A DNA stretch of 64,000 nucleotides, from assembly GCA_965213925.1 (NCBI GenBank), contig OZ243927.1, positions 4,448,001 through 4,512,000 of the forward strand, in the 5' to 3' direction. Shown one piece after another: positions 2,897 to 21,541 of the stretch. Numbering within the stretch: position 1 is the stretch's first letter; each line of letters begins with the position of its first letter. Under the pieces are notes generated by a model. It was not told the origin of the DNA. It ran no database searches and worked only from the letters and a program-made list of their open reading frames with translations. Position numbers and translations under genes: made by a program. Source of the DNA: Trueperaceae bacterium (GTDB lineage Bacteria; Deinococcota; Deinococci; Deinococcales; Trueperaceae).

Positions 2897-4341
2897 GCAG
2901 TTTTCCCAACGGCGCGCTTTGAGCGCTCGAACTCGTACGACGACAGCGTCAAACATAAGAAAAACCAGATGACCACGCCCATCACGCCGACCCAGGCGTT
3001 GCCGAAGGCGACCTGGCTGAGCCCCGCCACCGCGACGCTCAAGCAGGTCGTGCCGAACGCGCCCGAGCGCCTGAGGCGCGCCAGCGCGAGCGCGAAGAGC
3101 CAGCCGACGCCGCCCGCGTAGTAGAGCGTCCCGAGCGCGCCGAAGGCGTACGGCACCGCGATGACGCCGCTGTCTAGGTTGACCACGCCGCCCCGCGCGT
3201 TTAAGTCGGCGGCGACGCCCGTACTCCCCAGCCCCAGACCGAGCGGATGCCGGACGAGGAACGACGCCATGTCGGTATAGAGCGTCAGGCGGGCGCGGTA
3301 ACTCACGTCGCCCTGAACGTTGTCGAGCGACTCGAAGCGCGTGTTGACCGACTCGGCGATAGGTCCGAAGCGTAAAAGGGGCAGCGCCGCGACGCCGACC
3401 GCGACCAAGGTCAAGGCTAAGCGCGTGCGCTCGCGCGCCGGCAATTGCGCGGCGAGGACGAGCAGACCCACGACTAGCCCGCCCCAAGCGGAGCGCACCA
3501 GCGAGAGCATAAAGCTCGCGAAGCCGACCGCAGCCGCCCCCCAGCGGAGCACGCCGGGCGTGCGCAAGAGCAGCAGCAGCCCCGCCAGCATCACCACGGC
3601 GAACGGTCCCGGCGAGTTGAGCGTGCTGAAGACGCGCACCTCGAAGGGCTCGGGCGACCCGATGGAGCCCATGTCGGACTGGACCATCCAGTAGCTGTCC
3701 CACGCAGGCATGACCAGAAATTGGTAGAGCCCGTAAAGCCCCATGACCAGCACACCCCAGATGAAGGTGCGCTGGACCACGCGCCGCTGCGCCTCAAAGT
3801 GGTGCGGCGTAACGAGCAAGTACGCGCCTAAAACCACGGGCGCGAGCCAGTTGAGCAGGTCGAAGGTTGCGCCGAACACGCTGCCGAGCAGAACGCCGAT
3901 CCCGTAGCCGTACATGAGCCCCAGCAAGACGAGCGCGAAGGGCAGCCGGTAGCGCGGCGCGAAGCGGTGCAGGTTGAAAAATACCGGGAACGCCGCTAAG
4001 CACGAGACCAGAAAGGGCGCGACCATGACCAGGCTCGCCTCGGTGTAGCCCGTCTGGTTATCCACTAGGCGGCGCACCTCGGGGGTCAAGAACCAGAGCC
4101 ACCAGGTGTAGCCTAGGTAGCCCGCCGGACGCTGCCAGAGCCAGAGCGCGCCGACGCCCGTCGCCAGCACCGGGAACGCGAGTTGTAAAACGCTCGAGCC
4201 GCCCCCAACGACACCCAGCGCCGTAACGCCCACGAGCCCGATAAGGGACGCTATGGGCAGAGCCTCCAAATACACGTTACCGCCGCGACCACGCCCTGCG
4301 GGGGACCCGCCTTCGGCTCGAGCCCGGTACGCGCGTATCAC
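2893..4341 (-). CDS. Wzy / O-antigen-ligase-like polysaccharide polymerase
   Basis: Many TM helices. RVFSTLNSP, SLVRSAW and PLGLGLG...NLDSG motifs; EPS operon context. Confidence 0.75.
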   Translation of the reverse strand: MIRAYRARAEGGSPAGRGRGGNVYLEALPIASLIGLVGVTALGVVGGGSSVLQLAFPVLATGVGALWLWQRPAGYLGYTWWLWFLTPEVRRLVDNQTGYTEASLVMVAPFLVSCLAAFPVFFNLHRFAPRYRLPFALVLLGLMYGYGIGVLLGSVFGATFDLLNWLAPVVLGAYLLVTPHHFEAQRRVVQRTFIWGVLVMGLYGLYQFLVMPAWDSYWMVQSDMGSIGSPEPFEVRVFSTLNSPGPFAVVMLAGLLLLLRTPGVLRWGAAAVGFASFMLSLVRSAWGGLVVGLLVLAAQLPARERTRLALTLVAVGVAALPLLRFGPIAESVNTRFESLDNVQGDVSYRARLTLYTDMASFLVRHPLGLGLGSTGVAADLNARGGVVNLDSGVIAVPYAFGALGTLYYAGGVGWLFALALARLRRSGAFGTTCLSVAVAGLSQVAFGNAWVGVMGVVIWFFLCLTLSSYEFERSKRAVGKTA

Positions 4342-5204
4342 CGGTTCGCCTCCGCGGGTGCTGTAGCGTCTATCGGTGCGTCTTTGTAGGTATCCTCTTT
4401 ACAGGTGTCCTCCGGCGCGTAGAGCGCGGGCGGGTGAGGAGTGCGCGCCGCGTTCTGCCGCTCCCACAGCTTGGCGTAGCGGATAAAGTCGCTCGTCGCC
4501 TTGAGCAGCGAATGCATGAGCCCGCGCGTTCCCAAGCGAAAGCCCCCTCTGGCGACGTAGCTCCACAAAAAGCGCAGCACGGGCTTCACGGCGATGTCCG
4601 CCGCCGTCGCCCGCTTCCCCAAACGGTCGAGTTCAGCGGCTTCTAGGGTCGCGTAGCGGTTGAACAGCCCGACGAACTCGTCCACCGTATGCCCGTTCCA
4701 GTGGAGCAACACCCCCTCGACCGGAATGGACACGCCGGGAAAGCGCACCTCTTCGTGCACGTTCATCGCCGTGTCATAAGCGCTCTCCTTGCGGTTATAG
4801 AGCCGCACGAAGCTTCGCCTCTTGCTAGGTCGCGACTCGTTCGGCAGCAAGACGCCCAAAAAGTCGCCGCGGCGGTCTAAGGCGTAGGCGTTACGGGCGT
4901 CCAGCGGTCCGCGCAGCACCTCCTGCAAGGACGCGGACAGCTCCGGCGTAGCGACCTCGTCCGCGTCCAAAAAGAGCACCCAGTCGTGCTGAGCCAGCGC
5001 CGCCCCCCGGTTGCGCTGCTTCGAAAAACCGAGCCAAGGCTGCTCGAACACGTTCGCGCCCAAAGACGCCGCGATCTCCTTTGTATCGTCCGAGCTGCCC
5101 GAGTCGATGACGAGCACCTCGTCCGCCCAGCGCACGCTGCGGATGCAGCGCCCGATGAACTGCGCTTCGTTCTTCGTCATGATTACGACGCTGAGAGGGG
5201 TCAT
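4338..5204 (-). CDS. GT2 glycosyltransferase (WaaE/KdtX-like)
   Basis: LSVVIMTKNE, IDSGSSD, FLDADE, VHE motifs. RBS GAGG before ATG 5204. Confidence 0.88.
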   Translation of the reverse strand: MTPLSVVIMTKNEAQFIGRCIRSVRWADEVLVIDSGSSDDTKEIAASLGANVFEQPWLGFSKQRNRGAALAQHDWVLFLDADEVATPELSASLQEVLRGPLDARNAYALDRRGDFLGVLLPNESRPSKRRSFVRLYNRKESAYDTAMNVHEEVRFPGVSIPVEGVLLHWNGHTVDEFVGLFNRYATLEAAELDRLGKRATAADIAVKPVLRFLWSYVARGGFRLGTRGLMHSLLKATSDFIRYAKLWERQNAARTPHPPALYAPEDTCKEDTYKDAPIDATAPAEANR

Positions 5205-5293
5205 ATCAACCTCTTTTGACCGCACGGTTGGTCCACAAGATTAAAGTCACTGACCGAGATGCCACAGATGGCGATGTCGCTGACACGAAGCTC

Positions 5294-6250
5294 CTAACTC
5301 TGCACTTTCGTAGACCCCAAGCGCCTCAACCAGCGCGCTTTCACAATCGTTAAACCCAGACGGACGCTGTTCTTGGCGTAGCGCAGCCTTGGATAGTGCG
5401 CCAACGCCTCCTGGTGGAGCTGCGACGCTTCCTTGTCGTCGCCCGCATAGAGCAGCGAGCGCCACGCCGTATGAAGATACGCCCGCCCCAAAGCTCGCCC
5501 CTTGAGGTGCTGCTGCGCCGCGGGCACATCCCGAAAAGATTTATCGATGATTCGGCGGAGCGTAGGCAGGAGCGACTGATAGTTCTTGTGCTTGTTGTCG
5601 GCGTGCTGGCGGTAGGCAGCTAGGGGTTCTTTAACTACCGCAAAGCGGTAGCGCGCGGTGATGCGAATCCACATCTCCCAGTCTTCGGCGTAGCGAAAGC
5701 TCTCGTCAAACGTGCCGACCTCTCCGAAGAGTCGGCGGCGCACCAGCGGCGTGCTGCCGCAGCGCACCAGGTTGTACTCGACCATCTGCGCCCACACGTC
5801 GCCCTCTAAATGCTGCGTCATCACCTTGCCGATAGGCTCGCCCGCCGCGTTGATATACGAAATCCAGGTGTCCACCAAGCCCACCTCAGGGTCAGCCTCC
5901 ATGCGCGCCACCTGCTTCTCGAGCTTCGTCGGCTGCCACAGGTCGTCCGCGTCCAGAAAGGCGACGTACTCGCCCCTTGCCGCCGCCACGCCCGTGTTGC
6001 GCGCCGCCGCCGCGCCGCCGTTGGGTCTCGAGACCAGCTTGACCCTCGGGTCGGGGTGCGCCGCCGCCCAGCTCGCCGTATTGTCCTTGCTACCGTCGTC
6101 TACGATGAGCACTTCGAAGTCTTGGAGCGTTTGTGCCAAGACGCTCTCGACGGTGTGCGGAAGAAAGCGCATGGCGTTGTAGGCGGGGATGACGACCGAC
6201 ACTTTGGGAATAATATGTGGAGCTTTGGAAGAACTTGGCTGATAGGGCAT
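5294..6250 (-). CDS. GT2 glycosyltransferase
   Basis: VSVVIPAYN, VDDGSKD, FLDADD, AEDWEMW motifs. Confidence 0.92.
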   Translation of the reverse strand: MPYQPSSSKAPHIIPKVSVVIPAYNAMRFLPHTVESVLAQTLQDFEVLIVDDGSKDNTASWAAAHPDPRVKLVSRPNGGAAAARNTGVAAARGEYVAFLDADDLWQPTKLEKQVARMEADPEVGLVDTWISYINAAGEPIGKVMTQHLEGDVWAQMVEYNLVRCGSTPLVRRRLFGEVGTFDESFRYAEDWEMWIRITARYRFAVVKEPLAAYRQHADNKHKNYQSLLPTLRRIIDKSFRDVPAAQQHLKGRALGRAYLHTAWRSLLYAGDDKEASQLHQEALAHYPRLRYAKNSVRLGLTIVKARWLRRLGSTKVQS

Positions 6251-6390
6251 GGTGTCCTTTTACGTGAGTCTCAACACTGTCGCTGGCACGACCTTAATCT
6301 CAGAGGTTGCGCGTCCCGCGAAGTCCGGTGTGAGTAGCGGACCGGTCCACGTGAAGTTTAACTTTTTTCAAACTAAGATATGCTGAGTGA

Positions 6391-6598
6391 TACCAATTCC
6401 GATTGATTCTCAATCAATCCGAGCGAAAAAGTCTTCAACCGGGCGTATCATGCCGTCGTAATGTCGCTCATATTGGCTATTCGTTGATGTTACCACCGGT
6501 TGAGGACTCTCCTGCGAGCAGGAACAAATATACGGATGGAGCGTATGGACTATCACCGAACGCTTCTCTCGGTGATAGGGAATTAAGCGGAATCCGTA
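6391..6598 (-). repeat. SNR/MITE-like small non-coding repeat, copy 1
   Basis: Ends TACCAATTCCG / CGGAATCCGTA, internal hairpins. Inverted homolog of 20824-21040. Confidence 0.85.
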
Positions 6599-6607
6599 TG
6601 ACCCCGC

Positions 6608-7660
6608 TCACTCGGCACCGCTCACAACCTCTCGAAAAGCTTGCCATGTTTCCTTGCCGACCTCTCCCCACTCGAGCGCGTTCAGGTCCGCGCGTTGCCC
6701 CGCGACCCCTCGCGCCCACGCCTGACTCGCCCGTAGGTCCGCCGCGCTCAGCATTCCACGGTACATCTTAACCCAAGCCTCACCCACTTTCCCCTGCAAC
6801 TCCTCCATCGCACCCATGTTAGGGACCAGGATAGGTGTATCGAGCGAGAGCGCCATCAGCGCGCTGCCCGAATGCAAGATGTCCTTGTAGGGAAGAACCG
6901 CGACGTCCGCAGCGGCGAAGTAGTATTGTAGGTCGTCATCCGGGATAAACGTCAAGTGGAGCCGCACGCGCGGGTCATCCTGCGCTGCTTTCTCTATCTC
7001 ACGCTTTAAGCGGGGCGTGCGAGGATTGCCCGCGACCAAAAGCAGCGTCTGCTCGTCGTCAAGTTCGCGGAAGGTGCGCACAAGGTGGGGCACGTTTTTG
7101 TACCTTCTGATCTGCCCGAAGTGCAAGACAACCCCGACCTCTTCCGGTATCCCCAGGCGCTCGCGGGCAACTCGTTTTGACACCTGCACCTGATGCGAGT
7201 CGCGGTAATGACCTCTCGGAATCACGAACGAGGGCAGCGTTTTGAGGTGCGGAAACTTTGCGGTAGCCTCATCTGCTGCCGTTTGGCTGAGCGCAATCCA
7301 GCCGTCTAAGAGTTTGACGTAAGGGCGGTAGAAAAACGGCTCTAGGTAGGGATGATAGCGCTCGTGCGGGCGGAGGTTATGCACTGTCCACACGAGCTTA
7401 ACTCCTTTGGACTTAGCCTCTTTCAGCCAGCCCAATATCTCAGAGGTGTGCTTCATGATTTTGAGGGGGCTGCGCGTGTTGAAGTGGGTGTCGGGCCAGT
7501 GGATGTGCCACACGTCGTAACCGTCTACGCTAAAACGCCCCTCAGACATCGCCTGGGTCGAGAAGTCGTCTATCTCGACGCCAAAGGGTTTCATGCTGCC
7601 GTACAAGAGGTCCATGTGGTTATTCGTGGGGATGGAGGCGGGCCAGGCGAGTATTCGCAT
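6608..7660 (-). CDS. GT-B (GT4-like) glycosyltransferase
   Basis: WHIHW, WTVHNLRPHE, FGQIRRYKNV and AVLPYKDILHSGS motifs. Confidence 0.85.
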   Translation of the reverse strand: MRILAWPASIPTNNHMDLLYGSMKPFGVEIDDFSTQAMSEGRFSVDGYDVWHIHWPDTHFNTRSPLKIMKHTSEILGWLKEAKSKGVKLVWTVHNLRPHERYHPYLEPFFYRPYVKLLDGWIALSQTAADEATAKFPHLKTLPSFVIPRGHYRDSHQVQVSKRVARERLGIPEEVGVVLHFGQIRRYKNVPHLVRTFRELDDEQTLLLVAGNPRTPRLKREIEKAAQDDPRVRLHLTFIPDDDLQYYFAAADVAVLPYKDILHSGSALMALSLDTPILVPNMGAMEELQGKVGEAWVKMYRGMLSAADLRASQAWARGVAGQRADLNALEWGEVGKETWQAFREVVSGAE

Positions 7661-7691: not shown

Positions 7692-8903
7692 TTAGAGCGC
7701 CTCGATAAGCGCGACGAACTGTTCGTTCAAAACATCGTTATTGAACTCCCGCTCGACTTTAGCGCGGGCGGCGCGGCTCATATCGCTCAAAGTCTGAGGG
7801 GACGAGAGAAGCTCGAGCAGCCCCCTAGCGAGTGCGTCACTGTCGCGCTCGGGCACTAGATAGCCCGACACGCTATGTTCGATGAGTTCGGGGATGCCGC
7901 TATGCCAGGTGCTCAGCACGGGCGTTCCTTGCGCCATCGCCTCCATGATTGCCACTGGGATGCCCTCCATATCGCCGTTTTGCGCCGTGACGCTCGGCGC
8001 GAGCAGCACGTGAGCTTCGGAAAGCGTTTCGAACACGACGCGGCTCGGCTGAGGTCCTAAAAACCTAACGTGTGTCTGCACCCCTAAATGTGTCGTCTCA
8101 GCTTCTAGCACTTTGCGCAACGGACCGTCACCGATGATCGTATAGACGAGGTCGGGGTGCTGTGTAATAACGGCAGGCAGGGAGCGAATCGCGTAGATGA
8201 GCCCCTTTTTCTCTACCGCCCTCGCGACGCTCAAAAGCTTGACGGGCTCTCTCAGCGGCGTAGGATTAAAGGCGATCTCCGAACACGCGACGCCCATGTG
8301 GTGCACGCGCATCTTTTCAGACGGGAAGCCTTTCTCCTCGAGCCGCGCTTTCCACAGCTCGTTGACGGTTAGGAACAGGTCGCCCTCCTCCCTAAGCTGA
8401 GCGTAAGCGTCAGGGTGCGCGTCCAAGTAGGCGGAAACGTCAACCCCGTGAAAGATAGTAACGATTTTTCCAGAGAGTGCCCCGGCACCCTTGAGCGCCG
8501 CCGCCTCAGCGCCGTTGTAGCCGAAGTGACAGCAGACTACGTCGAAGGGCGGCTTCTGATTGAGAAAGGTCACACCAGCGGCAAAGAGCCGCGCGCTCCA
8601 GCGTCCTCTCAGGTAATCTCGAGGGCGCAGCACGCTCAAGTAAGCGGGGATGTTCGCGGGGTGGCGCACACACGACCTCAACATAAGCGCCGCCACGCTG
8701 AAGAGTCGCTCGAGCTTACGGCGCTCACCGGGCAGATAGAGGACCCTCACCCGCTCCGCCACCGGCACGTTGGCGCTAGGGTCCGCGCTAGGTTGCGCAA
8801 CCACGCTCACCTCGTGCCCAGCTTGGGCGAGCGCCTCGATCTGGCGGTAGACAAACGTCAAAGAGGTCAAGGGAAACTCCCTCAGCACGAACGCTATCTT
8901 CAC
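7692..8903 (-). CDS. GT4 glycosyltransferase, WcaL-like
   Basis: CHFG, FHGVD, EKKG, SVTAQNGDMEGIPVAIMEAMA motifs. Confidence 0.9.
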   Translation of the reverse strand: MKIAFVLREFPLTSLTFVYRQIEALAQAGHEVSVVAQPSADPSANVPVAERVRVLYLPGERRKLERLFSVAALMLRSCVRHPANIPAYLSVLRPRDYLRGRWSARLFAAGVTFLNQKPPFDVVCCHFGYNGAEAAALKGAGALSGKIVTIFHGVDVSAYLDAHPDAYAQLREEGDLFLTVNELWKARLEEKGFPSEKMRVHHMGVACSEIAFNPTPLREPVKLLSVARAVEKKGLIYAIRSLPAVITQHPDLVYTIIGDGPLRKVLEAETTHLGVQTHVRFLGPQPSRVVFETLSEAHVLLAPSVTAQNGDMEGIPVAIMEAMAQGTPVLSTWHSGIPELIEHSVSGYLVPERDSDALARGLLELLSSPQTLSDMSRAARAKVEREFNNDVLNEQFVALIEAL

Positions 8904-8909
8904 GGCTAT

Positions 8910-10247
8910 TTACGCTTTCACATGGTCTTGAGCTGACGGTTTACTTGCGGGGTCTAGGTCAAACACGTAGTCCAAAGCGTCGAAGGATGCCTCAGCCCGC
9001 CGATGCTCGCTCAGAACACCTTCAAAAAGCTGCTTATTGAAACTCGAGTAGTGCTCGACAAAACGCTCAATCTTACCTGCTAGTTCGTCGCCTGTAACGG
9101 TATCGATGTCCGAAACATACTTACCGATGCCGAAGCGACGAAAGAGTTCGGTCGTTTTGAACTCGTAAGAGATAGGCACGACGGGCGTACCTCTCGTAAG
9201 TGACAAAATAGCGACGTGCAGCCGCGTTGCTATGACAAGGTCAAAATCTGCCAGCTTAGCTTGCAAATCGAAAGGATCGTTGAAGTCAGAATTGACGGTT
9301 ACGCTCGCCTGATAGACTGGGTCTAGCTCGTCGAATACGCGCTGCGCGACTTTGGCGTCGTCCACCCAGTATTCAGGTATGCCCTGACAGGTGGAAATAA
9401 AGGTCACTTGCGCCCCGTAGGTGTCAATGACGAATTCCGTCGCCTGCCGGACGGCTTTCAGATATCTCTTCATACCGACGTCGGGCGAATCGTTTTTGAA
9501 ATACGGCCAGTGCCGCACCGATATGGCTACACGCTTAGGACGTAACGCTATAGCTTCACCCGCTTCCGCCACCTCTTTCTCTACCGCCGTAACGAAAACA
9601 GCGTCGGCTGACACCTGCATGTTGTCCGCCGTGTTCACGCTCTTGCAGTGTTCGTAAGAAGCCTCGTCGCGAAGCAGAATAAGGGCACACTTGGGAAACA
9701 CCTGACTCAGCATCTCTCGGTTGCGCTCCTCTGTAAAGGGTCCCATCGACTGAGTAAAGAGGACGACGGGGCGACCTGTGGCGAGCGAGAAACTTAGTTC
9801 GTCGTACCTCCTCTTGATGGAGTAGTTCTCGACGATGTAGGTCCCGCCCGTACCAATAATCATATCTACACTTACGTAATCGTCGAAAATCGCTCTCACC
9901 CTTGCTGGCATGAGCGCGCGGGCTAGGTTGATCCAGCCCCGCCTGAGCAGGGCGAGCGAAAGCACAGCCCGCACACGCTGCCCCTCTTGTTTTATCTTTC
10001 GACGTATCTTGCTGACTAGACCGGGCTGCGCCGCCGACCCCTCCCCCCCAAACGACCTCAAAACGTACTGTAGCTGGCTCTTGATCGTCAGGTCTGGGTA
10101 GTAGCGACGCGCCGCCTCTGCCTGGGAATCGTAGATCACAAACTCCGTATCGGGCCCGTATTTCTGCTCCATGCCCGCGATCATAGACTTGAGTATGGCG
10201 GCGTCGCCGGCGTTGAGCATGACTATATTTGTGATAGCGATTTTCAC
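8910..10247 (-). CDS. Polysaccharide pyruvyl transferase, WcaK-like
   Basis: NAGDAAI, TGGTY, QSMGPF, LLRD, IATRLHVAI, ISYEFKT motifs. Confidence 0.88.
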   Translation of the reverse strand: MKIAITNIVMLNAGDAAILKSMIAGMEQKYGPDTEFVIYDSQAEAARRYYPDLTIKSQLQYVLRSFGGEGSAAQPGLVSKIRRKIKQEGQRVRAVLSLALLRRGWINLARALMPARVRAIFDDYVSVDMIIGTGGTYIVENYSIKRRYDELSFSLATGRPVVLFTQSMGPFTEERNREMLSQVFPKCALILLRDEASYEHCKSVNTADNMQVSADAVFVTAVEKEVAEAGEAIALRPKRVAISVRHWPYFKNDSPDVGMKRYLKAVRQATEFVIDTYGAQVTFISTCQGIPEYWVDDAKVAQRVFDELDPVYQASVTVNSDFNDPFDLQAKLADFDLVIATRLHVAILSLTRGTPVVPISYEFKTTELFRRFGIGKYVSDIDTVTGDELAGKIERFVEHYSSFNKQLFEGVLSEHRRAEASFDALDYVFDLDPASKPSAQDHVKA

Positions 10248-10276: not shown

Positions 10277-11743
10277 TCAGCCTTTAGCTTTGAGAGGGCG
10301 GCGTAGCGGGAGCGTCGTGCGAACGAGGTCGAACACTCTGAGCGACAAGGCTGGGGCGATCAGCCTTATGCTCGCTAAATAGGACGTGCCGCCCGCGAGC
10401 GCGAGCAGCGCGAGCCTGACGGCGGGCGCGAGGTTAGCGGACAGCGTGAGCGTAGCGTAGAGCGCGCCGACCATGAGGAGCGAAGCAGTGAGCGGACCTA
10501 GAAAGCGTCTGAGATAGTCCTTGATGCTTATGTTGGTGAGCCGCTTGACCATGATCACGCTGACGGGCGAAAGAATGTATGCGCGGATTGTATAGGCTGC
10601 CGCGACCGCTTCGATGCCGAAGCGCACCACGCTCAGAAACGAAACCAGGTTGATCACCGCCGAGAGCGCGCCGTAAGCGACCTGCCACTGAGGTTTCCCG
10701 TAGGCTTGAACGACGACGAAATTGAAACTGAGCGAAGTCTGAATCATGCCCGCGCCGCAGAGAATTTGCAGCACGAGCACGCTCTTTGTCCACTCCTCGC
10801 CGAACACGAGAGGCACCAGCAGAGGTGCGACAAAGGCGAGACCTATAAAGGCAGGGAACGCCAAGAAGCTAACCGTCTCTATGAGGGAATAGAACGCCCT
10901 CCTAGTACGGGCAAGCTCCGTTTGCGTACGCGAAATAGCCGAGAACGCGACCTCGGAGAACGACGAGGAGAAAAGCTCCGCAACGATATAGTAAGCGCGG
11001 TAGGCTACGCCGTAAAAGCCGAGCGCGGTGGGACCAAGGAACGCGCCGATCAAGAGGTCATCGCTACGCCGGTTGATAAACGTCAGCGCCCGTGTGCCGA
11101 ACGAGTTGACTTCAAAAGCGAAGAGGTCTACGAAGTGCTTCCTCGAAAACGCGAACCTCGGTCTCCAGGAACTTAAAAACCACAAGGTTGCTGTGGACAG
11201 GACGCTCGAGATAAGTTGCTGAGCGACGAGGCTCCACACCCCGAAACCTGCGAACGCCATACCCACCCCGACAGCGCCGCCCACAACTAACCCCAGCAGG
11301 GTCCGCACCGCGAGCGCTCTATACGCAAGCTCTCGCTGCAAATAAGCGTTCTGCACGTTGACAAATGCGTTGATGATAAAGACGAGCGAGAGCCAGCGTA
11401 AGATAGCGCCGAGTTCTGGCTGGTTAGATAGATGGGCGATGAGGGGCGCAAGCGCGAAGACGAGCGCTGTGAGTAGAGCGCCCGTGACGATATTGCTCCA
11501 GAAGGCGGTGTCTAGGTGCTCTGGTTCGAGCTTGGGGCGCTGCACGAGCGCTTTGACGAAGCCGTTGCCCAGAAAGATATCGGCTATAGCGATAAATACG
11601 CCCGCGTAGGCGACGAGGCCGAACGCTTCCGGTCCGAGGAGCCGGGCGAGGATGAAAAAGACGAGCAAACCCCAGAACCGGGCAGCCCAGCGCTGCACAA
11701 GAGACCAGACGACTCCGACAATCGTTCTTTCTTTAAGGCTCAT
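10277..11743 (-). CDS. wzx: Wzx flippase (WzxC/PST family)
   Basis: LARLLGPEAFGL, FGVWSLV, DDLLIG..LG..ALGFY, FGEEW; many TM helices. Confidence 0.9.
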   Translation of the reverse strand: MSLKERTIVGVVWSLVQRWAARFWGLLVFFILARLLGPEAFGLVAYAGVFIAIADIFLGNGFVKALVQRPKLEPEHLDTAFWSNIVTGALLTALVFALAPLIAHLSNQPELGAILRWLSLVFIINAFVNVQNAYLQRELAYRALAVRTLLGLVVGGAVGVGMAFAGFGVWSLVAQQLISSVLSTATLWFLSSWRPRFAFSRKHFVDLFAFEVNSFGTRALTFINRRSDDLLIGAFLGPTALGFYGVAYRAYYIVAELFSSSFSEVAFSAISRTQTELARTRRAFYSLIETVSFLAFPAFIGLAFVAPLLVPLVFGEEWTKSVLVLQILCGAGMIQTSLSFNFVVVQAYGKPQWQVAYGALSAVINLVSFLSVVRFGIEAVAAAYTIRAYILSPVSVIMVKRLTNISIKDYLRRFLGPLTASLLMVGALYATLTLSANLAPAVRLALLALAGGTSYLASIRLIAPALSLRVFDLVRTTLPLRRPLKAKG

Positions 11744-12023
11744 TATTCGTGGGTCTCATCTCAGAAATGGGAGTAGAGGTGGGTGCGCCATAAGGCTCGA
11801 GCTTACGGTAGCGAGTCGCCTCCTCGAGGTGCCACCGCCCAGCGCATTTAACCATAAGCCACAGTTCATGTCTACGCGGTCGGACGACCGTAAGGACATA
11901 GCCAGAATGGAAAATGCTATCTTGAATCCGCGGAGCAAACGCCGCGTTTAATACGGAGTGTCTAAATTTTGCGGTACGCCGCGACCCACTCGAACCCCTG
12001 GAAAGCCCTATAAGGAGCGACCC

Positions 12024-12845
12024 ATGAACGTTGGACACATGCTACGTGAGGTCAAGACTAAAGCCAGCAGTACGTACATGCGCCTGAGTTACAGACGAAA
12101 GGCTAGAGTCTACTGCGTCGGAACGGCGAAAAGCGGCACGCACTCAATTGCTGAGATGTTTGACGACACCGTTCGTTCGGGGCACGAGCCTGAATACCGC
12201 GAGGTCATCCGGAAAATCTTCGAGATTGAAGAGGGGAAGATGTCAGAGTCGGCGGCCCTGTCCTACGTCCGAGCCAGAGATAAAAGGCTCTGTTTAGATA
12301 TCGACTCGTCTCAGCTCAACTTCTTTATCCTTAGCTACCTTTTAGAGGCGTTTCCGGATGCGCGCTTTATCCTCACCATCCGAGACTGTTACTCCTGGTT
12401 GGACTCTTTTATCAACCACTCGCTGCGCCGAGATGCCAGGAAAGAATGGATTGCACTTAGGGATTACCGGTTTCAAGCGCACACCTTGTCACACCCTCCA
12501 GAGGAGCGGGCGCTCGAAGAGAGGGGGCTATACACGCTCGACGGCTACCTCTCATACTGGGCGCACCATAACCACAAGGTTTTATCTTCTATTCCACAAG
12601 ACCGCCTTATGGTGCTCAAAACAAAGGAGATAACGCAGTCGGCTCAGGCTATCGCTGCGTTTACCGGTCTGCCGAAAGAAACGATACTGCTAGAGAAATC
12701 TCACGCCTTCAAAAACCCCGAGAAGTACAACGTCTTACGAGAGATCAAAGAGACCCATCTCGAGGCGAAGGTACACCTGCACTGCGGCGACCTCATGAGC
12801 AGATTCTTCCCTGAGATTCGTTCCGTACGTGATACGGAAGTTTGA
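12024..12845 (+). CDS. PAPS-dependent sulfotransferase family protein
   Basis: 5'-PSB loop VGTAKSGTHS and 3'-PB motif FPDARFILTIRDCYSWLDS. RBS AAGGAG before ATG 12024. Confidence 0.75.
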   Translation: MNVGHMLREVKTKASSTYMRLSYRRKARVYCVGTAKSGTHSIAEMFDDTVRSGHEPEYREVIRKIFEIEEGKMSESAALSYVRARDKRLCLDIDSSQLNFFILSYLLEAFPDARFILTIRDCYSWLDSFINHSLRRDARKEWIALRDYRFQAHTLSHPPEERALEERGLYTLDGYLSYWAHHNHKVLSSIPQDRLMVLKTKEITQSAQAIAAFTGLPKETILLEKSHAFKNPEKYNVLREIKETHLEAKVHLHCGDLMSRFFPEIRSVRDTEV

Positions 12846-13098
12846 GGGACGCATTAGATGCGAGATGAAGCAACGAGTCCCAGCACGGTGGAGCGGGCGC
12901 GAATATACGGCGCTTCCACGTAACGTTACTACATTTCTCCGCAGGCATCATCCCCAAATGTGCGTGTCAAGCGATATTTTTTGAAGTGAGAGTATCTCAA
13001 ACCAGATGATACCTGCTATAAAAAATGCTTTCAGAAACGGTGTGAGCTGAAGTTGTGGCGGGACTCAAAGTGGAGGCGGAGACTGCCAAGGCAGTTGC

Positions 13099-14073
13099 TC
13101 AATCCTTAATTGTCGGAGCACTTTCTACTCGCGCCGTTGCACCATTCACTATTAAGCTGTCCTGCGGCAGAAAACGCACCTCACGCTCGAGCCACACCCC
13201 AAAGCGCTCCTGCACCACCTCTTGAATATGCGCCATCAGCGCCTTGACGTCTTGCGAGGTCGCCTCGCCGCCGTTCTCGATCCAGTTGGCGTGCGTGGGG
13301 CTCACCACCGCACCGCCGACCTTATAGCCTTTGAGCCCGGCTTGGTCGATATACCAGCCTGCGGGCTCGCCCCCCTCGGGCTGCTTAAAGACGCTGCCGC
13401 TCGTGTGACGCTGCAAGGGCTGCTTGGCAGCGCGCTTTTTGAGCACCTCTTTTTGCCGCGCCTTGATCGCGTCTACGTCGTCTCGTTTTTCGGCGCGAAA
13501 GGTCGCGTCTAGGACCCAGTGAGTGTGCAAGAGGTCGCTGTGGCGGTAGCGCAACCCGGCTTCGCTGGCGCTGAGCGTTTGGATGCGCCCTGTGGCCAGC
13601 TCGAGCGTCCGCACAGATTCTAAACGTTCGCTGATCGAGACGCCGCTCGCCCCGCCGACGCCGGCGTTAATGGCGACGCCTGCGCCCACCGTGCCGGGAA
13701 TGCCAATTAGAAACTCGAAGCCAGAGAGACCCGCTTGCCCCGCCTTGACCGCGAGTTTAGGAAGCGGACAGCCCGCCTCCGCGCGGACGCGCCCCCCGTC
13801 GGCGTCCACCGTGACCTCGTCGAAGGAGCTGCGCAGACAGACGACCACGCCGGGGACGCCCGTGTCGTCGATGAGCGTGTTCGAGCCGCGCCCTAAGATG
13901 GTGAGGGGCAAGCAGGCGTCTTTAGCGTACTCGTAAGCGGCGATGAGTTCGTCGGCGCTGTCGGGCTCTAAGAGCACCTCCGCTTCGCCGCCGATGTTCC
14001 AGGTCGTGTAGGGCGCGAGCGCGTGGTGGTAGCGGGGCGCGTTGACGTAGTCGGGAGGAGCGAGTTCAGGCAT
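13099..14073 (-). CDS. murB: MurB-family enolpyruvyl-sugar reductase
   Basis: GRGSN, GIPGTVGAGVAINAG, YRHS, QP...GSVFKQP, HANWI, LEREV motifs. Confidence 0.9.
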   Translation of the reverse strand: MPELAPPDYVNAPRYHHALAPYTTWNIGGEAEVLLEPDSADELIAAYEYAKDACLPLTILGRGSNTLIDDTGVPGVVVCLRSSFDEVTVDADGGRVRAEAGCPLPKLAVKAGQAGLSGFEFLIGIPGTVGAGVAINAGVGGASGVSISERLESVRTLELATGRIQTLSASEAGLRYRHSDLLHTHWVLDATFRAEKRDDVDAIKARQKEVLKKRAAKQPLQRHTSGSVFKQPEGGEPAGWYIDQAGLKGYKVGGAVVSPTHANWIENGGEATSQDVKALMAHIQEVVQERFGVWLEREVRFLPQDSLIVNGATARVESAPTIKD

Positions 14074-15400
14074 AGCTGATGTCGCCGCCTAAACTCCGCA
14101 GCTTCTGCACGAAACCGTTGTAGCCGCGCTCGACTTGCCAAGCATCTTGCACGTACGTCGTGCCGTCCGCGGTGAGCCCCGCGAGCGTGAGCGAGACGCC
14201 CGCGCGCAGATCGAGCGCCTTGACCTCCGCGCCGCGCAGGGGTGCGCCGCCCGCGATCTTGAGCAAGTTGCCGTCGACCTCGCGCTGCGCGCCCATCTTG
14301 GCGAGTTCGTCGGCGTAGCCGTAGCGCCCTGGAAAGCGCAGGTCGACGATGCGCGATTCGCCCCGCGCGCACGCGCCGTAGAGCGCGAAGAGGGGCTGCA
14401 TGTCCGAGTTGATGCCGGGGTAGGGTCCGGTGCTGATCTCGACGGGGAAGCAGCGCCCGCCGCGGACGATGAGGCTGTTTTCGCCCCTGTAGAACTTCGC
14501 GCCGCTCTCGCGCAGGTGGATGAGGGGCACCTCTAAATCTTGGGCGGGAAAGTTGACGATCTCGACGCTGCCGTGCGTCACCACCGAGCCGATAAGCCAG
14601 GTGATCGCCTCCATGTTGTCCGCGATGACCGTGTGCTGCGTGCCCGAGAGGGACTCCGAGCCGATGATCTCGATGTGCTCTTGCCCGAACACCTTGATGC
14701 GCGCGCCCATCCCCCTTAAAAATTCGATGAGGTCTAAAATTTCGGGGCGGATGTGCGGGTTCCAGACGCGCGTGATGCCCTCCGCCAGACTTCCGCAAAT
14801 AATCGCATTTTCGGTCGCGCCCGTCGAGCGTATGGGCAAGTAGATGTCGTTGCCCCGCAAACGCCCCGGCGCGCTCGCGCAGAGCGTGTCGCCTTCGGTC
14901 CAGACCTCCGCGCCGAGGCGGCGCAGCACCATCTCGTGCAGGTCGAACTTGCGCTCGCCCAGTTTGCAGCCACCCGGCAGCGGCACCTTGCCCTCACCGA
15001 GACGCGCCGTGAGCGCCCCTAAGATCAGCAGCGTGTTCCTGATCGAGCGACCCGACCACTCGAGCGTTGCGTGGGGCGCGCCCGCCTCTTCGCCTATCGT
15101 GATCGTTTCGCTGCCTGGGGCGCACGTCTTGCCGAGGGCGCGGAGCATCTCCACGTGGACTTGGGCGTCGAGCAACCCGGCTGGGTAGTTGCGCAGCACG
15201 ACCCGTTCGTCCGTTAAGAGGGAAGCGGCGAGCAGCCTGAGCACGCTGTTTTTCGCGCCGCTTACGTGGACTGTGCCCTCGAGCCGCGACATCCCCACCG
15301 CGTAGGTCGTCCGCTCGGGCTGCGCCGACGCCGTGTGCGGCTGCGAAGCCCGGTCTTCAGCTGTATCTACCTTTTCTGTCACTGCGGTGTCTTGTGGCAT
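14066..15400 (-). CDS. murA: MurA-family 1-carboxyvinyltransferase (divergent)
   Basis: SGAKNS, LPGGCKLGER (Cys115 equivalent), GATEN, SDMQP, DLRAG, VERGY. RBS AGGAG before ATG 15400; overlaps the murB start. Confidence 0.9.
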   Translation of the reverse strand: MPQDTAVTEKVDTAEDRASQPHTASAQPERTTYAVGMSRLEGTVHVSGAKNSVLRLLAASLLTDERVVLRNYPAGLLDAQVHVEMLRALGKTCAPGSETITIGEEAGAPHATLEWSGRSIRNTLLILGALTARLGEGKVPLPGGCKLGERKFDLHEMVLRRLGAEVWTEGDTLCASAPGRLRGNDIYLPIRSTGATENAIICGSLAEGITRVWNPHIRPEILDLIEFLRGMGARIKVFGQEHIEIIGSESLSGTQHTVIADNMEAITWLIGSVVTHGSVEIVNFPAQDLEVPLIHLRESGAKFYRGENSLIVRGGRCFPVEISTGPYPGINSDMQPLFALYGACARGESRIVDLRFPGRYGYADELAKMGAQREVDGNLLKIAGGAPLRGAEVKALDLRAGVSLTLAGLTADGTTYVQDAWQVERGYNGFVQKLRSLGGDISYA

Positions 15401-15640
15401 CGTTACACTCCTAAAGAAGGATTCTAGCCGTAAACGCGCGCGCATGTCGCGCATAAGTCACATGTCGAGGTCAGTTTTGTGCTGCTTGTTCTGTGCTGCT
15501 TATGGCTAGGTGCCGCGCGGCGCTCTTCTCGCGGCTACATCCCGTGTGCGGAGTTCGCACCTGTTTCCATCATGCAAGCATATGGGTGCTGACAACGTTT
15601 CCTGCGTAGCGGGACCGCTTCATAAGTTGTACTAAGCGCT

Positions 15641-15656: not shown

Positions 15657-16032
15657 GACCCGGAGCGCGACTCGCCCGGCGAGCGGCGCGAGCACCCCCG
15701 AGCGCATCTGTCACACGAATATTTCATATACACAGCGCGGCTTTGCCCCTATTATAAAGCATACCTGAGGGACACCCCGCCCTCGGACGCGATGAAACCT
15801 GTTTCGCAATGAGCTTCGGAAGGGAAGCGTAACGCGGCCTTTCCGAAGTTCTCTTGGGCGCTTGAAACAGGCGGAGCAAGTAGCGCAACCGGCCGGGGGC
15901 ACACCTTTGCTTTCTCACGTCATCTTCTGCGTCTATCCCCTTGCGTTCTCCCTGTGCCCACCTAACCGAGTTGAGCTGAAGCCTGGCTCGCCAGGTCTCA
16001 ACACACTCACCGGGGTCATTTGGAGGCAGAGG

Positions 16033-17943
16033 ATGAAAAGGAACATTCAGGTTGTGAAACGGACGCTGACTCAGTATGCTAAAGGCGTGGTGGCGGCTCT
16101 GTTACTCCTTTTATTCGCGGCGTGCGGCGGCGTAACCCAAGCACCTACTTTGGATACGCTCGCGGCGACCTTGGCGACGAGCGAGCACGGGCTCGTCGTC
16201 GAAGCCGAGGCGTTTCACGCGAAGGCGGCTAAGGGCAAGCACCAGTGGAAAGCGCGCGGCGACGCGATGTACGCCTTGCCCGACGTCAAAACGACCTACA
16301 ACAGCAACTTTACTTTGAGAAGCCCCCGCTTGGACTACCGGATCAGCGTCGAGCAGCCCGGCACCTACTACGTGTGGGTCAAGGGAATGGCGGCCGGCAG
16401 CTCGAAGGGCAGCAGCGACTCGGTACACGTCGGCTTAAACGGCAAAGCGGTAAGGAGCGCCGACCGTATCAGCGGCTTTGGTACCCGCTTCGGTTGGAAA
16501 AAGGGAACGATGGACGGCCCTAGAGCCAAGCTCAAGCTGAGCGCGGGGACCCACACCCTCAACGTCTGGATGCGCGAAGACGGTTTCGCGTTCGATAAGC
16601 TCGTCTTAACCCGCGACGCTAGCGCGAAGCCCGCCGCCGTCATCAAGGCGACCGAAAACGAGCAAGAGGCGACCAGCGGTCCGGCGCTGCCCGTGCCGAG
16701 TAGCAAAGAGAACACAATGAGTTTACCGCGCGTAAAAGCGAAATCTGCGGGCAGCTTTATCGACAGCATCGGCGTGAACACGCACCTGCACTACCAGGGC
16801 ACGGTCTACGACAAACGCTACGAAGACCTTATCAAGCCTAAGCTTTTAGAGCTAGGCGTCCGCCACATCCGCGACGGCGCGTACACCTACGAGGAGGCAG
16901 GGCGCAACACCTTCTTCTACAAGCGGCTCCGCGAGCTAGGCGCGGCGGGCATCGACTTCAACCTGCTCACCTCATTAGAGACCCCCTATAACGACGCCAC
17001 GGACTACAGCAAGTTGGACGACGTCGTCTCCTGGACGGACGGCGCGGTCACTTCGTTCGAGGGCATCAACGAGCCCGACTTGCAAGGCATCAGCGGTTGG
17101 GTCAACCTCACCAGAGACGCGCAGAAGAAACTCTACGGCACCGTAAGGGGCAACCCGGCGCTCAAGGACGTAAAAGTTTTAGGTCCGTCGCCCGTATGGA
17201 AGGCGAAAGACTTGGGCGACTTGAGCCGCTACATGGACTACGGCAACACCCACCCTTACCCCGGCGGTAAGATGCCGACTGGCAGCGAGTACGGTCAGAG
17301 CACCCAAACCAGCATGGTCAAAGCCTCCAGAAACAGCGGCGTCAAACCCGTCATGTTCACCGAAACGGGCTATCACAACGCCCTCAAAACCGACAACGAT
17401 CACGCACCGACCTCCGAAGCGGCGACCGCCAAGTACCTCCCCCGGATGCTCCTGGCGCACTTCAACATGGGCGTGCCGCGCACCTACCTATACGAACTCA
17501 TCGACAGCAAGTCCAAAGGGCGCAGCACGGACCCCGAGGCGTCCTTCGGGCTCTTGCGCAACGACGGGTCCGAAAAGCCCGCCTTTAGAGCGGTGGAGAA
17601 CCTCATCGACTTGCTGGAGGACTCCGGCACCTTCACGCCCGGCGCGCTCAACTTCTCGCTGAGCGGCAGCGCGGACGACGTCCACCAGACGCTCCTGCAG
17701 AAGCGCGACGGCACCTTCTACTTAGCGCTCTGGTCGGCGAAGGAGAGCTGGGACCGCGACTCGAGAGAAGACGTCCGCGTGAACGCGCAAAACGTCACCG
17801 TGACGCTCGGTTCAGACGTTAAGAACGTGACCTTACATACCCTAAACGGCGCGGGGCGCATGTCCAAAAGAGCAGTGTCCTTACAGAACGGCTTGGTCGA
17901 GCTTAAGGTCGGTGACAGCGTGACGGTGCTCGAGCTTCGTTAA
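16033..17943 (+). CDS. Lipoprotein glycoside hydrolase (clan GH-A-like) with N-terminal beta-sandwich domain
   Basis: Lipobox LFAAC. VEAE...YYVWV...WMREDGFAFDKL domain. IGVNTH, GVRHIRD, acid/base GINEPD, nucleophile FTETGY, FGLL. Confidence 0.75.
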   Translation: MKRNIQVVKRTLTQYAKGVVAALLLLLFAACGGVTQAPTLDTLAATLATSEHGLVVEAEAFHAKAAKGKHQWKARGDAMYALPDVKTTYNSNFTLRSPRLDYRISVEQPGTYYVWVKGMAAGSSKGSSDSVHVGLNGKAVRSADRISGFGTRFGWKKGTMDGPRAKLKLSAGTHTLNVWMREDGFAFDKLVLTRDASAKPAAVIKATENEQEATSGPALPVPSSKENTMSLPRVKAKSAGSFIDSIGVNTHLHYQGTVYDKRYEDLIKPKLLELGVRHIRDGAYTYEEAGRNTFFYKRLRELGAAGIDFNLLTSLETPYNDATDYSKLDDVVSWTDGAVTSFEGINEPDLQGISGWVNLTRDAQKKLYGTVRGNPALKDVKVLGPSPVWKAKDLGDLSRYMDYGNTHPYPGGKMPTGSEYGQSTQTSMVKASRNSGVKPVMFTETGYHNALKTDNDHAPTSEAATAKYLPRMLLAHFNMGVPRTYLYELIDSKSKGRSTDPEASFGLLRNDGSEKPAFRAVENLIDLLEDSGTFTPGALNFSLSGSADDVHQTLLQKRDGTFYLALWSAKESWDRDSREDVRVNAQNVTVTLGSDVKNVTLHTLNGAGRMSKRAVSLQNGLVELKVGDSVTVLELR

Positions 17944-20526: not shown

Positions 20527-20823
20527 GTGAACGCCTACTTAGTCAAAACTGATCACGGCGACGTGCTCGTGGAGGTCAACCCCGCGTGCAACAACGCCTT
20601 GGAAAAAGATTTGCTCCTCTTCCATAAGCCCACGCCGGACAACACGCAAGACATCAACATGGAGGTGCCGCTGCGCGCCTTTAGCGCTAAGATGGTCGAC
20701 ATCATCGAGGGCGTCGGCACGCCCAACGTAGACGCGAGCCCCAAGCTTTTAGCGATGATGAAAGAGGAGAAAGCCACCGAAGACCTCGCCCGCATCGAGA
20801 GGTGGGCCAAGGCGAACGCCTGA
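20527..20823 (+). CDS. Hypothetical protein (98 aa), probably leaderless
   Basis: Genome-like codon usage. TAAGCT lies 5 nt before the GTG. Confidence 0.7.
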   Translation: MNAYLVKTDHGDVLVEVNPACNNALEKDLLLFHKPTPDNTQDINMEVPLRAFSAKMVDIIEGVGTPNVDASPKLLAMMKEEKATEDLARIERWAKANA

Positions 20824-21040
20824 TACGGATTCCGCTTAATTCCCTATCACCGAGAAAAAGCCTCGGCGATAGTCCATACGCTCCATCCGTATATTTGTTC
20901 TTAATCGCAGAGGAGTCCTCAACTGGGCGTATCATGCCGTTATAAACGCCCGTAGTGTTGATTTGAAGATGCTACCTCCAGTTGAGGACTCTTTCGCTCG
21001 GATTGATCCGCGTATATTAGCGAATCAATCGGAATTCGTA
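20824..21040 (+). repeat. SNR/MITE-like small non-coding repeat, copy 2
   Basis: TACGGATTCCG...CGGAATTCGTA termini. Fills the whole gap between two convergent stop codons. Confidence 0.85.
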
Positions 21041-21541
21041 TTACTCCTCGACCTCGATGACCTCGCCTAAGTTTTCCAAGCTCGACTTGTAGAGGTGTAG
21101 CGCCAAGTCCTGCACTGCGCTGATCGCCTCGCTGTTGCGCAGGGCGCTGTCTACGCGGCTGTTGGCGACGGCGAGGCTCGAGGCTAGCACCTCAGGAAAG
21201 ATGGGCCACGGTCCCTCAAAAGGTCCGTCGTCCGCATATTGCTGGCTCACGCCTTCGTTCGTTATCTGCGCGGGCTGCTCTCGCTCGGGCACGGTGCGAC
21301 TAGGCGCAGACCCGTTCGTGCTGACAGACCCTCTCAACTTCGAGAGCGCCGCTTCGCTCGCTCTACGCTCGGCTTCGCGCTTGTTGTTACCTTCACCCTT
21401 GCCGTAGACCTCGCCTTGGATGATCACGTCGCTCACGAAGGTCGGTTCGTGCTCGGGTCCGGTATTTTTGGTGTCGAATTTGGGCTTGGCGAGCCCCGAC
21501 TGCTTGCAGTGCTCGATAAGCACGCCTTTGGGATGTTGCAT
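21041..21541 (-). CDS. Double-stranded RNA-binding domain protein
   Basis: HPKGVLIE..Q, GPEHEPTF, GEGNNKREAERRAS..AL is a canonical dsRBD; no RNase III domain. Confidence 0.85.
   Translation of the reverse strand: MQHPKGVLIEHCKQSGLAKPKFDTKNTGPEHEPTFVSDVIIQGEVYGKGEGNNKREAERRASEAALSKLRGSVSTNGSAPSRTVPEREQPAQITNEGVSQQYADDGPFEGPWPIFPEVLASSLAVANSRVDSALRNSEAISAVQDLALHLYKSSLENLGEVIEVEE

Follow-up and report, generated by a model that had tools for sequence, protein, structure and literature searches.

The gene pair at the head of an exopolysaccharide cluster

The stretch of DNA considered here (the window) comprises 64,000 nucleotides from a Trueperaceae bacterium (GenBank assembly GCA_965213925.1, contig OZ243927.1, positions 4,448,001 to 4,512,000 of the forward strand). 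On its minus strand are two overlapping genes for homologs of the peptidoglycan enzymes MurA and MurB, designated murA* and murB* to distinguish them from the housekeeping copies of the same genome. The pair heads a Wzx/Wzy exopolysaccharide (EPS) cluster, reads in the same direction as the minus-strand EPS genes, and probably represents a horizontally acquired accessory cassette that makes a lactyl-ether sugar linked to uridine diphosphate (UDP) for the EPS, outside peptidoglycan synthesis. The features of the pair are as follows:

14066..15400, minus strand: murA*, accessory MurA-family enolpyruvyl transferase, 444 amino acids (aa) (PF00275, E 3.5e-66)
13099..14073, minus strand: murB*, accessory type-II-like MurB, enolpyruvyl reductase dependent on flavin adenine dinucleotide (FAD), 324 aa (PF01565 and PF02873)
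14066..14073, minus strand: overlap of the murA* stop and the murB* start, ATGCCTGA, 8 nt, with the murA* TGA over the murB* ATG (direct sequence reading)
15401..15450, minus strand: Shine-Dalgarno and promoter-like match 5' of murA* (GGAG; GCGACA-18-TAGAAT at 15450-15421)

The murA* open reading frame (ORF) is open from 14066 to 15454 on the minus strand, and its start was assigned to the ATG of position 15400, which GGAG precedes by 7 nt. In Pfam and NCBIfam profile searches, its product passes the subfamily model NF006873 (381.5 bits, cutoff 297) and does not reach the MurA equivalog TIGR01072 (368.2 bits versus a cutoff of 392.7), a cutoff also missed by four of the five other members of its clade that were scored. 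Among sequences of solved structures in the PDB, 33 MurA-family sequences match at E <= 1e-20, including H. influenzae MurA (2rl1) at 252.3 bits. MurB* contains PF01565 (FAD_binding_4, E 4e-20) and PF02873 (MurB_C, E 1.8e-33) and passes both MurB equivalogs (NF010480, 298.8 bits with a cutoff of 259; TIGR00179, 221 bits with a cutoff of 144.5). In its alignment with Listeria MurB (3tx1, 168.6 bits), YRHS, GSVFK and LEREV fall on the same motifs (YR.S, GSVFK, E.EV), which we take to be the site of the MurB catalytic Arg/Ser/Glu triad.

Translational coupling of the two genes through the 8-nt overlap is likely. The site at 15450-15421 is no more than a match to the consensus, one of three promoter-like sites in the region (1.0 +/- 1.1 expected), and with one terminator-like site (3.7 expected) the promoter/terminator scan is uninformative. 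A sequence-only reading of the same DNA, generated by a model, had described an overlapping murA-murB unit isolated from murC-G, ddl and fts genes. Its coordinates for both ORFs were exact, the overlap is borne out, and none of the 51 annotated ORFs (19 + 32) across the window encodes a Mur ligase or is a ddl or fts gene. The catalytic motifs that it listed (GAKN, GGC, SDMQ, DLRA) are present in alignments to solved MurAs, as are the segments that it considered altered relative to the canonical forms (IRNT, RSTGAT, GINSDMQ, DLRFPGR). Family membership and the intact catalytic residues are thus established directly; the residues K22, N23, R91, C115, R120, D305, R331 and R397, whose roles are taken from the literature and partly from recall, occur in the window MurA* and are 100% conserved in 70 clade members. 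The fosfomycin-target cysteine is also kept.

Housekeeping copies, distribution of the clade and gene neighbourhoods

The genome contains a housekeeping murA at C1:1930238-1931464 (34% identical to murA*; TIGR01072 468.6 bits, above cutoff) and a housekeeping murB at C1:3768592-3769368 (38% identical to murB*) in the order murC, murB, unassigned ORF, ftsA. The second canonical murA and the dcw-linked murB for which the sequence-only reading had proposed to search the genome are therefore both present elsewhere in it. In ten other genomes of this family, the housekeeping MurA shares 60-89% identity with the housekeeping copy of the window genome and 34-37% with murA*, which does not group with the housekeeping enzymes of its own family.

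Relatives of murA* were searched in a word-indexed collection of 5.8 billion proteins, in contigs from one genome per species, and among 1.84 billion representatives at 50% identity. The best 120 matches among the 5.8 billion proteins are all 66-100% identical to murA* and carry source names including Geobacter, Armatimonadota, Syntrophotaleaceae, Desulfobacter, Vitreimonas and Methanosarcina barkeri, with complete M. barkeri chromosomes among them. In the one-genome-per-species contigs, 276 stretches encode a relative, and the best 80 of these 276 (61-70% identical) span Pseudomonadota, Bacteroidota, Thermodesulfobacteriota, Planctomycetota, Verrucomicrobiota, Chlorobium and Methanosarcina. 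Overall, murA* is 61-86% identical to a cross-phylum clade that includes Geobacter, Armatimonadota, Bacteroidota, Gammaproteobacteria, Planctomycetota and Methanosarcina. Among the 50%-identity representatives, this clade consists of two full-length sequences (66% and 60%), followed by intermediates at 42-49% and then by the bulk of MurAs at 41% or less. A FastTree analysis of 165 sequences places the 30 sampled clade members on one branch (Shimodaira-Hasegawa-like support 96), inside a wider branch of 50 sequences (the superclade; support 95) that adds the 7 intermediates and 13 of the nearest other representatives, all 13 of which have Arg at the E. coli Val327 position; the genome's housekeeping MurA falls outside the superclade. 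Canonical MurA and murA* are both present in each of Psychrobacter, Christiangramia and Citrifermentans, and members of the clade are encoded on seven plasmid or chromid records. On a Qingshengfaniella plasmid the arrangement is minimal (small ORF, murA*, murB, GT2), with RefSeq peptidoglycan terms of the Gene Ontology (GO) attached. The plasmid-borne murA*/murB of locus L121 (NZ_CP042263.1, 8977-11246) bear RefSeq GO terms for cell division, cell wall and peptidoglycan, probably an over-annotation, which is expected to recur clade-wide.

Within the window's own family the distribution is sporadic. MurA* is found in 2 of 128 genomes (2 of 127 if the unpublished G089, with a 32% match only, is left aside), namely the window genome and the congener G023 (86% identical), and the other family genomes have a single match at 31-38% or none (three genomes). 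In a second genome of the same genus, G022, the flanks are kept (Wzc to Wzy, a GT2, Wzx, a GT4, and the gene with a GH115_C-like domain) and the slot of the pair is occupied by ~4 kb of unrelated DNA. G023 has murA* and lacks murB* and the window's sulfotransferase, and both congeners possess only a housekeeping, dcw-type MurB. In G023 (locus L117, G023:C4), a pyruvyl transferase gene (393 aa) followed by a gene for a nitroreductase-family protein (370 aa) occupies 10560-12864 on the minus strand, opposite to murA*. Because its contents differ among the window genome, G023 and G022, the slot is a variable cassette region, and the GC content of the pair (murA* 65.7%, murB* 64.0%) is higher than that of the genome (58.4%) and of the neighbouring genes (52-54%). 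Horizontal acquisition of the cassette is, jointly with its role outside peptidoglycan, the probable explanation of these patterns. The three genomes also form a natural triad for comparison, with murA* and murB* in the window genome, murA* only in G023, and neither in G022.

Two lineages carry the clade in the absence of canonical MurA. In the M. barkeri genome the EPSP-synthase family is represented by AroA and murA* only, and the single MurB adjoins murA*; in control genomes, the MurB_C model matches 10 of 10 bacteria and 0 of 4 archaea. In the family of Rubripirellula obstinata, only one of 41 sampled genomes gave a MurA-type match (E <= 1e-15 with this query), namely murA* itself. Both lineages have their own murB beside murA*. 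The R. obstinata genome (G131, locus L116), with its murA*-murB in a polysaccharide locus, has a second, weak MurB_C match elsewhere. Rubripirellula was considered as a natural experiment in which murA* might supply peptidoglycan, and was rejected as such, since the whole family is without MurA-type matches; for the same reason it is uninformative about the acceptor sugar.

The gene neighbourhoods of the clade are those of polysaccharide loci. Pfam searches on 119 ORFs from 11 loci, the Methanosarcina locus included, identify a polysaccharide cluster around murA* in all 11 (Wzx, Wzy, GT4/GT2, Wzz, acyltransferases and sugar-nucleotide enzymes) and dcw genes in none of them. For a wider count, 907 flanking ORFs of 81 loci were clustered and representatives of the larger clusters annotated. 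At least one polysaccharide-assembly family lies within 7 kb in 73 of the 81 loci, the eight exceptions being mostly short contigs, which supports the association with wzx/wzy-type genes that the sequence-only reading had proposed to score. The recurrent neighbours are Wzx (61/81 loci), MurB (59/81 by ORF clustering), a ~390-aa protein of no family (42/81), GT4 (40/81), epimerase (36/81), hexapeptide acyltransferase (34/81), Ugd-type dehydrogenase (24/81), GT2 (14/81), Wzy (12/81) and Wzc (11/81). By tblastn, murB is detected in 63 of 80 loci, always on the murA* strand and within 700 bp in 44 of them. When only the 53 loci with 5 kb or more of sequence on each side are counted, murB is present in 44 and absent from nine, and the eight of these nine that were scanned show no alternative reductase among the three ORFs nearest to murA* on each side. 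Across 56 loci, the distances among MurA* proteins correlate with those among the MurBs (Mantel r = 0.80, p = 0.001), with MurB diverging faster (mean distance 0.63 versus 0.36 for MurA*), and MurB* relatives at 46-64% identity are found on contigs size-matched to those of the MurA* relatives, an indirect sign of co-inheritance.

The window conforms to the clade pattern in having a same-strand murB beside murA* and a Wzx/Wzy-type cluster; the usual companions of the clade (the ~390-aa protein, hexapeptide acyltransferase, epimerase and Ugd) are all absent within 7 kb of the window pair. The ~390-aa protein is encoded directly downstream of murB in the loci looked at (e.g., L019, L050 and L058), with members at L058:12195-13358 and L073:5330-6517. 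It belongs to no Pfam or NCBIfam family, has no relative in the PDB, gives weak GT4 hits in one member, and shows no similarity to the weak GT4-like gene of the window. It is a candidate for a dedicated glycosyltransferase of the lactyl sugar. Sulfotransferase genes adjoin murA* in three of the eight scanned MurB-less loci (L010, L037 and L067, the second of which also has an APS kinase) as well as in the window, which suggests polysaccharides carrying sulfate as well as lactyl groups.

The EPS cluster of the window and its flanks

On the strand of the pair, the genes downstream of it follow in the order Wzx, pyruvyl transferase, two GT4, two GT2, Wzy-like, GT4 and Wzc. The features of the cluster and its flanks are:

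10277..11743, minus strand: Wzx-type flippase (PF13440, E 2.9e-89)
8910..10247, minus strand: polysaccharide pyruvyl transferase, WcaK/CsaB-like (PF04230, E 9.5e-29; NF007452 121 bits, below cutoff)
7692-8903, minus strand: GT4 (Pfam)
6608-7660, minus strand: GT4-like, weak (Pfam)
5294-6250, minus strand: GT2 (Pfam)
4338-5225, minus strand: GT2 (Pfam)
2893-4341, minus strand: Wzy-like polymerase (Pfam), syntenic in congeners G023 and G022
within ORF 1688-3703, minus strand: GT4 (Pfam), syntenic in G023 and G022
1-1539, minus strand, continuing past the window edge: Wzz/BY-kinase Wzc (Pfam), syntenic in G023 and G022
11958..12845, plus strand: sulfotransferase, convergent with murB* (PF17784, E 9.9e-11; PF13469, E 1e-7; GC 52.3%)
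15862..17943, likely start 16033, plus strand: probable lipoprotein with a GH115_C-like domain (PF17829, E 3.6e-12, its sole domain)
12905..13025, no strand assigned: copy of a short dispersed repeat in the spacer between murB* and the sulfotransferase gene (49 blastn hits in its own genome, many copies in G022)

The ORF strands agree with the co-orientation of the pair and the EPS genes described in the sequence-only reading, which had also placed the pair between a sulfotransferase and a secreted glycoside hydrolase. The sulfotransferase assignment stands; its gene sits between murB* and wzx, on the strand opposite to both. For the other flank, 'secreted' is plausible, as the N-terminus read from 16033 (MKRN...LLLLLFAAC) resembles a lipoprotein signal, while the label of glycoside hydrolase is unsupported because the product contains only the accessory domain found at the C-terminus of GH115 and no PDB relative of it was found. 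This flank gene is conserved in both congeners.

A second short dispersed repeat, at 6380-6610, has 27 blastn hits in its own genome; a congener has dozens of hits to the two repeats, and repeat sequence also lies at 20823-21046. The repeat copies in the EPS locus occupy the GT2b/GT4b spacer and the one between murB* and the sulfotransferase gene, where synteny with the congeners breaks, and may mark junctions of cassette exchange. The remaining ORFs of the window encode sugar catabolism and transport. A 166-aa ORF at 21041-21541 (minus strand), with a dsRNA-binding motif (dsrm, E 1e-15) as its sole Pfam domain, adjoins a copy of a dispersed repeat. At 58665-59434 (plus strand), a DeoR-type regulator is divided into two overlapping ORFs (HTH_DeoR at 58665-59045, DeoRC at 58988-59434), possibly through a frameshift or a sequencing error. 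A 137-aa fragment of an IS1 transposase at 27139-27552 (plus strand) lies within a stretch of low GC content (26-30 kb, 0.52-0.53).

Proposed function and comparison with known systems

The cluster allows a pathway to be proposed. MurA* would move the enolpyruvyl group of phosphoenolpyruvate (PEP) onto a hydroxyl of a UDP-sugar (the catalytic Lys, Asn, Cys, Asp and Arg residues and the UDP-binding residues are intact), and MurB*, coupled to it, would reduce the enol ether with FAD/NADPH to the lactyl (1-carboxyethyl) ether. One of the glycosyltransferases of the cluster would then take the UDP-lactyl-sugar into a repeat unit to be flipped by Wzx and polymerised by Wzy, and the product would be an acidic EPS, probably also pyruvylated and sulfated. 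The direct observations behind this proposal include the housekeeping copies, the distribution of the clade and its neighbourhoods; from them we infer the in vivo reaction, the acceptor sugar and the glycosyltransferase that uses the product. The role in EPS is supported because housekeeping copies exist, murA* stands apart from the MurAs of its family, and 73 of 81 loci are polysaccharide loci. The central claim of the sequence-only reading, that the pair is paralogous and serves EPS rather than peptidoglycan, is thus well supported by comparative genomics, with which every genomic test that it had proposed agrees. Of the nucleoside diphosphate (NDP) sugar that it had named as the product, the idea of a nucleotide sugar is kept and its breadth is narrowed to a UDP-sugar, since the UDP-binding residues are retained.

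Several points weigh against this account. A search of the open-access literature (PMC Creative Commons, bioRxiv) recovered no biochemical or structural study of any clade member, and the Mantel correlation could result partly from shared species phylogeny. The ~390-aa neighbour is absent from the window, whose cluster has no obvious dedicated glycosyltransferase, and the plus-strand sulfotransferase gene parting the pair from wzx weakens the case for co-transcription with the EPS genes. The canonical core is kept (of 85 positions with 80% conservation or more in the 128 nearest other MurAs, 80 are unchanged), but this 'canonical' comparison set consists of nearest representatives rather than verified housekeeping enzymes. 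Finally, and with respect to the acceptor being UDP-N-acetylglucosamine (UDP-GlcNAc), clade-invariant changes affect ligand contacts (K160 to I/M/L, V163 to T and V327 to R).

The identity of the acceptor is the part of the explanation on which these residues bear. Table 1 of PMC13750019 lists 11 hydrogen-bond or ionic contacts in the E. coli MurA-UDP-GlcNAc structure (1UAE). Carried to murA* through the alignment with H. influenzae MurA, eight of the 11 are identical (including N23, R91 and D305) and K160, V163 and V327 differ; because these three published contacts have clade-invariant substitutions, UDP-GlcNAc is not assured. The altered segments noted in the sequence-only reading are real and belong to the signatures of the clade. 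Invariant or nearly so in its 70 members are N at the A92 position, K at P121, R at V161 and T at V163, as well as I-N-S in place of F-P-T before D305 and L-R-F-P-G-R-Y in place of T-V-F-E-N-R-F, and the window MurA* carries the R209/T211/I-N-S/L-R-F-P-G-R-Y signature. A clustering of clade-specific changes near the contacts, suggested by a naive test (11/32, p = 0.001), disappeared under a fair control: with the comparison restricted to clade-conserved positions, the values are 11/39 near contacts versus 21/108 (odds ratio 1.6, p = 0.27). Since the enrichment vanishes, the substitutions are not taken as evidence for a new acceptor, and the hint of a different acceptor that the sequence-only reading had seen in the altered segments finds no support in the eight identical contacts or in this test. 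The nine of 53 well-flanked loci and the congener G023 that lack a murB of their own, together with the lack of an alternative reductase in the eight loci scanned, mildly favour a product that the housekeeping MurB can reduce. The murB that adjoins murA* in both lineages devoid of canonical MurA also speaks for UDP-GlcNAc. UDP-GlcNAc, giving UDP-N-acetylmuramic acid (UDP-MurNAc), is the simplest candidate within the EPS explanation, with roughly an even chance of being the acceptor.

The same cassette might instead use another acceptor, e.g., UDP-glucuronic acid (UDP-GlcA, which would give 3-O-lactyl-GlcA or 'nosturonic acid'), UDP-glucose, or the uronic acid of a UDP-N-acetylhexosamine; this is a sub-variant of the EPS explanation, compatible with its general part, and possible while not likely. 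It is favoured by the clade-invariant residues in ligand-contact segments (the V161, V163, F-P-T and T-V-F-E-N-R-F positions), the Arg at the V327 position that marks the whole superclade, the failure of four of five clade members tested to reach the MurA equivalog cutoff, and the occurrence of 3-O-lactyl-GlcA with galacturonic acid and GlcNAc in the EPS of Vibrio alginolyticus (PMC5983295). Two NDP-sugar dehydrogenases are encoded elsewhere in the genome, and Ugd-type dehydrogenases (24/81 loci) and epimerases (36/81) recur beside murA*. However, Ugd is common in acidic-polysaccharide clusters generally, the window's locus has no Ugd or epimerase gene, clade-specific changes are unenriched near the contacts, eight of 11 UDP-GlcNAc contacts are identical, and the MurB-less loci and the congener suggest that the housekeeping MurB can handle the product. 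A narrower form of this alternative, which we consider doubtful, would make MurA* a UDP-uronic-acid (e.g., UDP-GlcA) 3-O-enolpyruvyl transferase in which Arg373 and Arg209, the clade-invariant arginines at the Val327 and Val161 positions, bind the C6 carboxylate, and the pair with MurB a nosturonic acid synthase. If true, it would supply the missing synthase of 3-O-lactyl-GlcA for bacterial, cyanobacterial and archaeal acidic polysaccharides and a new substrate class for a MurA/MurB pair.

A reading in which MurA* works alone and leaves an enolpyruvyl (1-carboxyvinyl) ether that remains unreduced or is processed by a different enzyme, with MurB* dispensable or serving another step, is very unlikely. 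The absence of murB from nine of 53 well-flanked loci would fit such a role, as would G023, which keeps murA* without murB* next to the opposite-strand pyruvyl transferase and nitroreductase-family genes, but against it stand the intact murB* of the window with its 8-nt overlap with murA*, the same-strand murB of 63 of 80 loci, which co-varies with murA*, and the lack of a recurring alternative reductase in the eight MurB-less loci scanned. A redundant or conditional second peptidoglycan set merely located beside an EPS locus (cf. MurAA/MurAB (MurZ) of Firmicutes) would agree with the intact catalytic residues, with the curated models that score both proteins as MurA/MurB (MurB* passing its equivalog cutoff) and with the RefSeq peptidoglycan GO terms on clade members, yet it is most improbable given a clade that extends to Methanosarcina and to a planctomycete family with 40 of 41 sampled genomes lacking a MurA-type match, its presence in only 2 of 128 family genomes, the polysaccharide clusters at 73 of 81 loci with dcw genes in 0 of 11 Pfam-scanned ones, and a slot that varies among three congeners.

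Under the EPS explanation, the pair would be a member of a widespread accessory polysaccharide MurA/MurB cassette, and would involve no new principle. Lactyl ethers decorate many O-antigens, capsules and exopolysaccharides, and a tight, widely transferred MurA*/MurB clade in polysaccharide loci is the obvious candidate for their synthesis. Automated annotation gives the clade peptidoglycan roles and so misleads pathway reconstructions, for example through apparent 'peptidoglycan genes' in archaea or Planctomycetes. The same open-access literature yielded neither an enzyme family for polysaccharide lactyl ethers nor a paper assigning the murA* clade. A review of pyruvylation, in the passages concerned with MurA, treats the enzyme in a peptidoglycan context only (PMC6801904), and for archaea without pseudomurein the role of MurA- and MurB-like proteins has been called unclear, extracellular polysaccharides being one possibility (PMC10117817). 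The lactyl ether in Nostoc EPS is known here through a citing paper.

Compared with known systems, the pair shares with the housekeeping MurA (EC 2.5.1.7) and MurB (EC 1.3.1.98) the same folds, families, and catalytic and UDP-binding residues, and would share the predicted chemistry of enolpyruvyl transfer from PEP followed by flavin-dependent reduction to a lactyl ether. It differs from them in sequence (34% and 38% identity), in forming a separate monophyletic clade, and in its horizontal spread, with 2 of 128 family genomes carrying it; murA*, unlike housekeeping MurA, resides in Wzx/Wzy polysaccharide loci and in hosts without canonical MurA, scores below TIGR01072, and is changed at K160, V163 and V327. 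Most Firmicutes encode two MurA-family enzymes (PMC12077105), and MurAA/MurAB (MurA1/MurZ) resemble murA* in being a case of a second MurA-family gene in one genome; both of those duplicates serve peptidoglycan and are vertically conserved in the phylum, whereas murA* is sporadic, has its own MurB, and is found in polysaccharide loci. NikO of nikkomycin synthesis (PDB 4fqd), which acts on uridine monophosphate, is likewise a MurA-family enzyme in a non-peptidoglycan pathway, but murA* scores 126.6 bits to 4fqd versus 252.3 to 2rl1, keeps the MurA sugar-site residues and has a MurB partner. The ketal-pyruvyl transferases (PF04230; WcaK, CsaB), one of which is encoded at 8910-10247, place a three-carbon acid from PEP on polysaccharide sugars, as predicted for MurA*, with an unrelated fold and a cyclic ketal rather than an ether as the product. 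The pair's proposed role also recalls the lactyl-ether genes of E. coli and Shigella O-antigens. A Psychrobacter murA*-murB* pair has no blastn match in all complete E. coli genomes, with distant homologs at the protein level still possible. In E. coli O-antigens, lactyl groups occur on rhamnose in O58, on glucose in O124/O146 and on GlcNAc in O69/O150; UDP-GlcLA in O124 is attributed to wfeP (PMC7685785), while for S. boydii 17 'two new genes' for a lactyl-ether sugar are announced in the title of a reference in PMC5643014. These are dedicated genes of a polysaccharide cluster for a lactyl-ether nucleotide sugar, the role proposed here for murA* and murB*.

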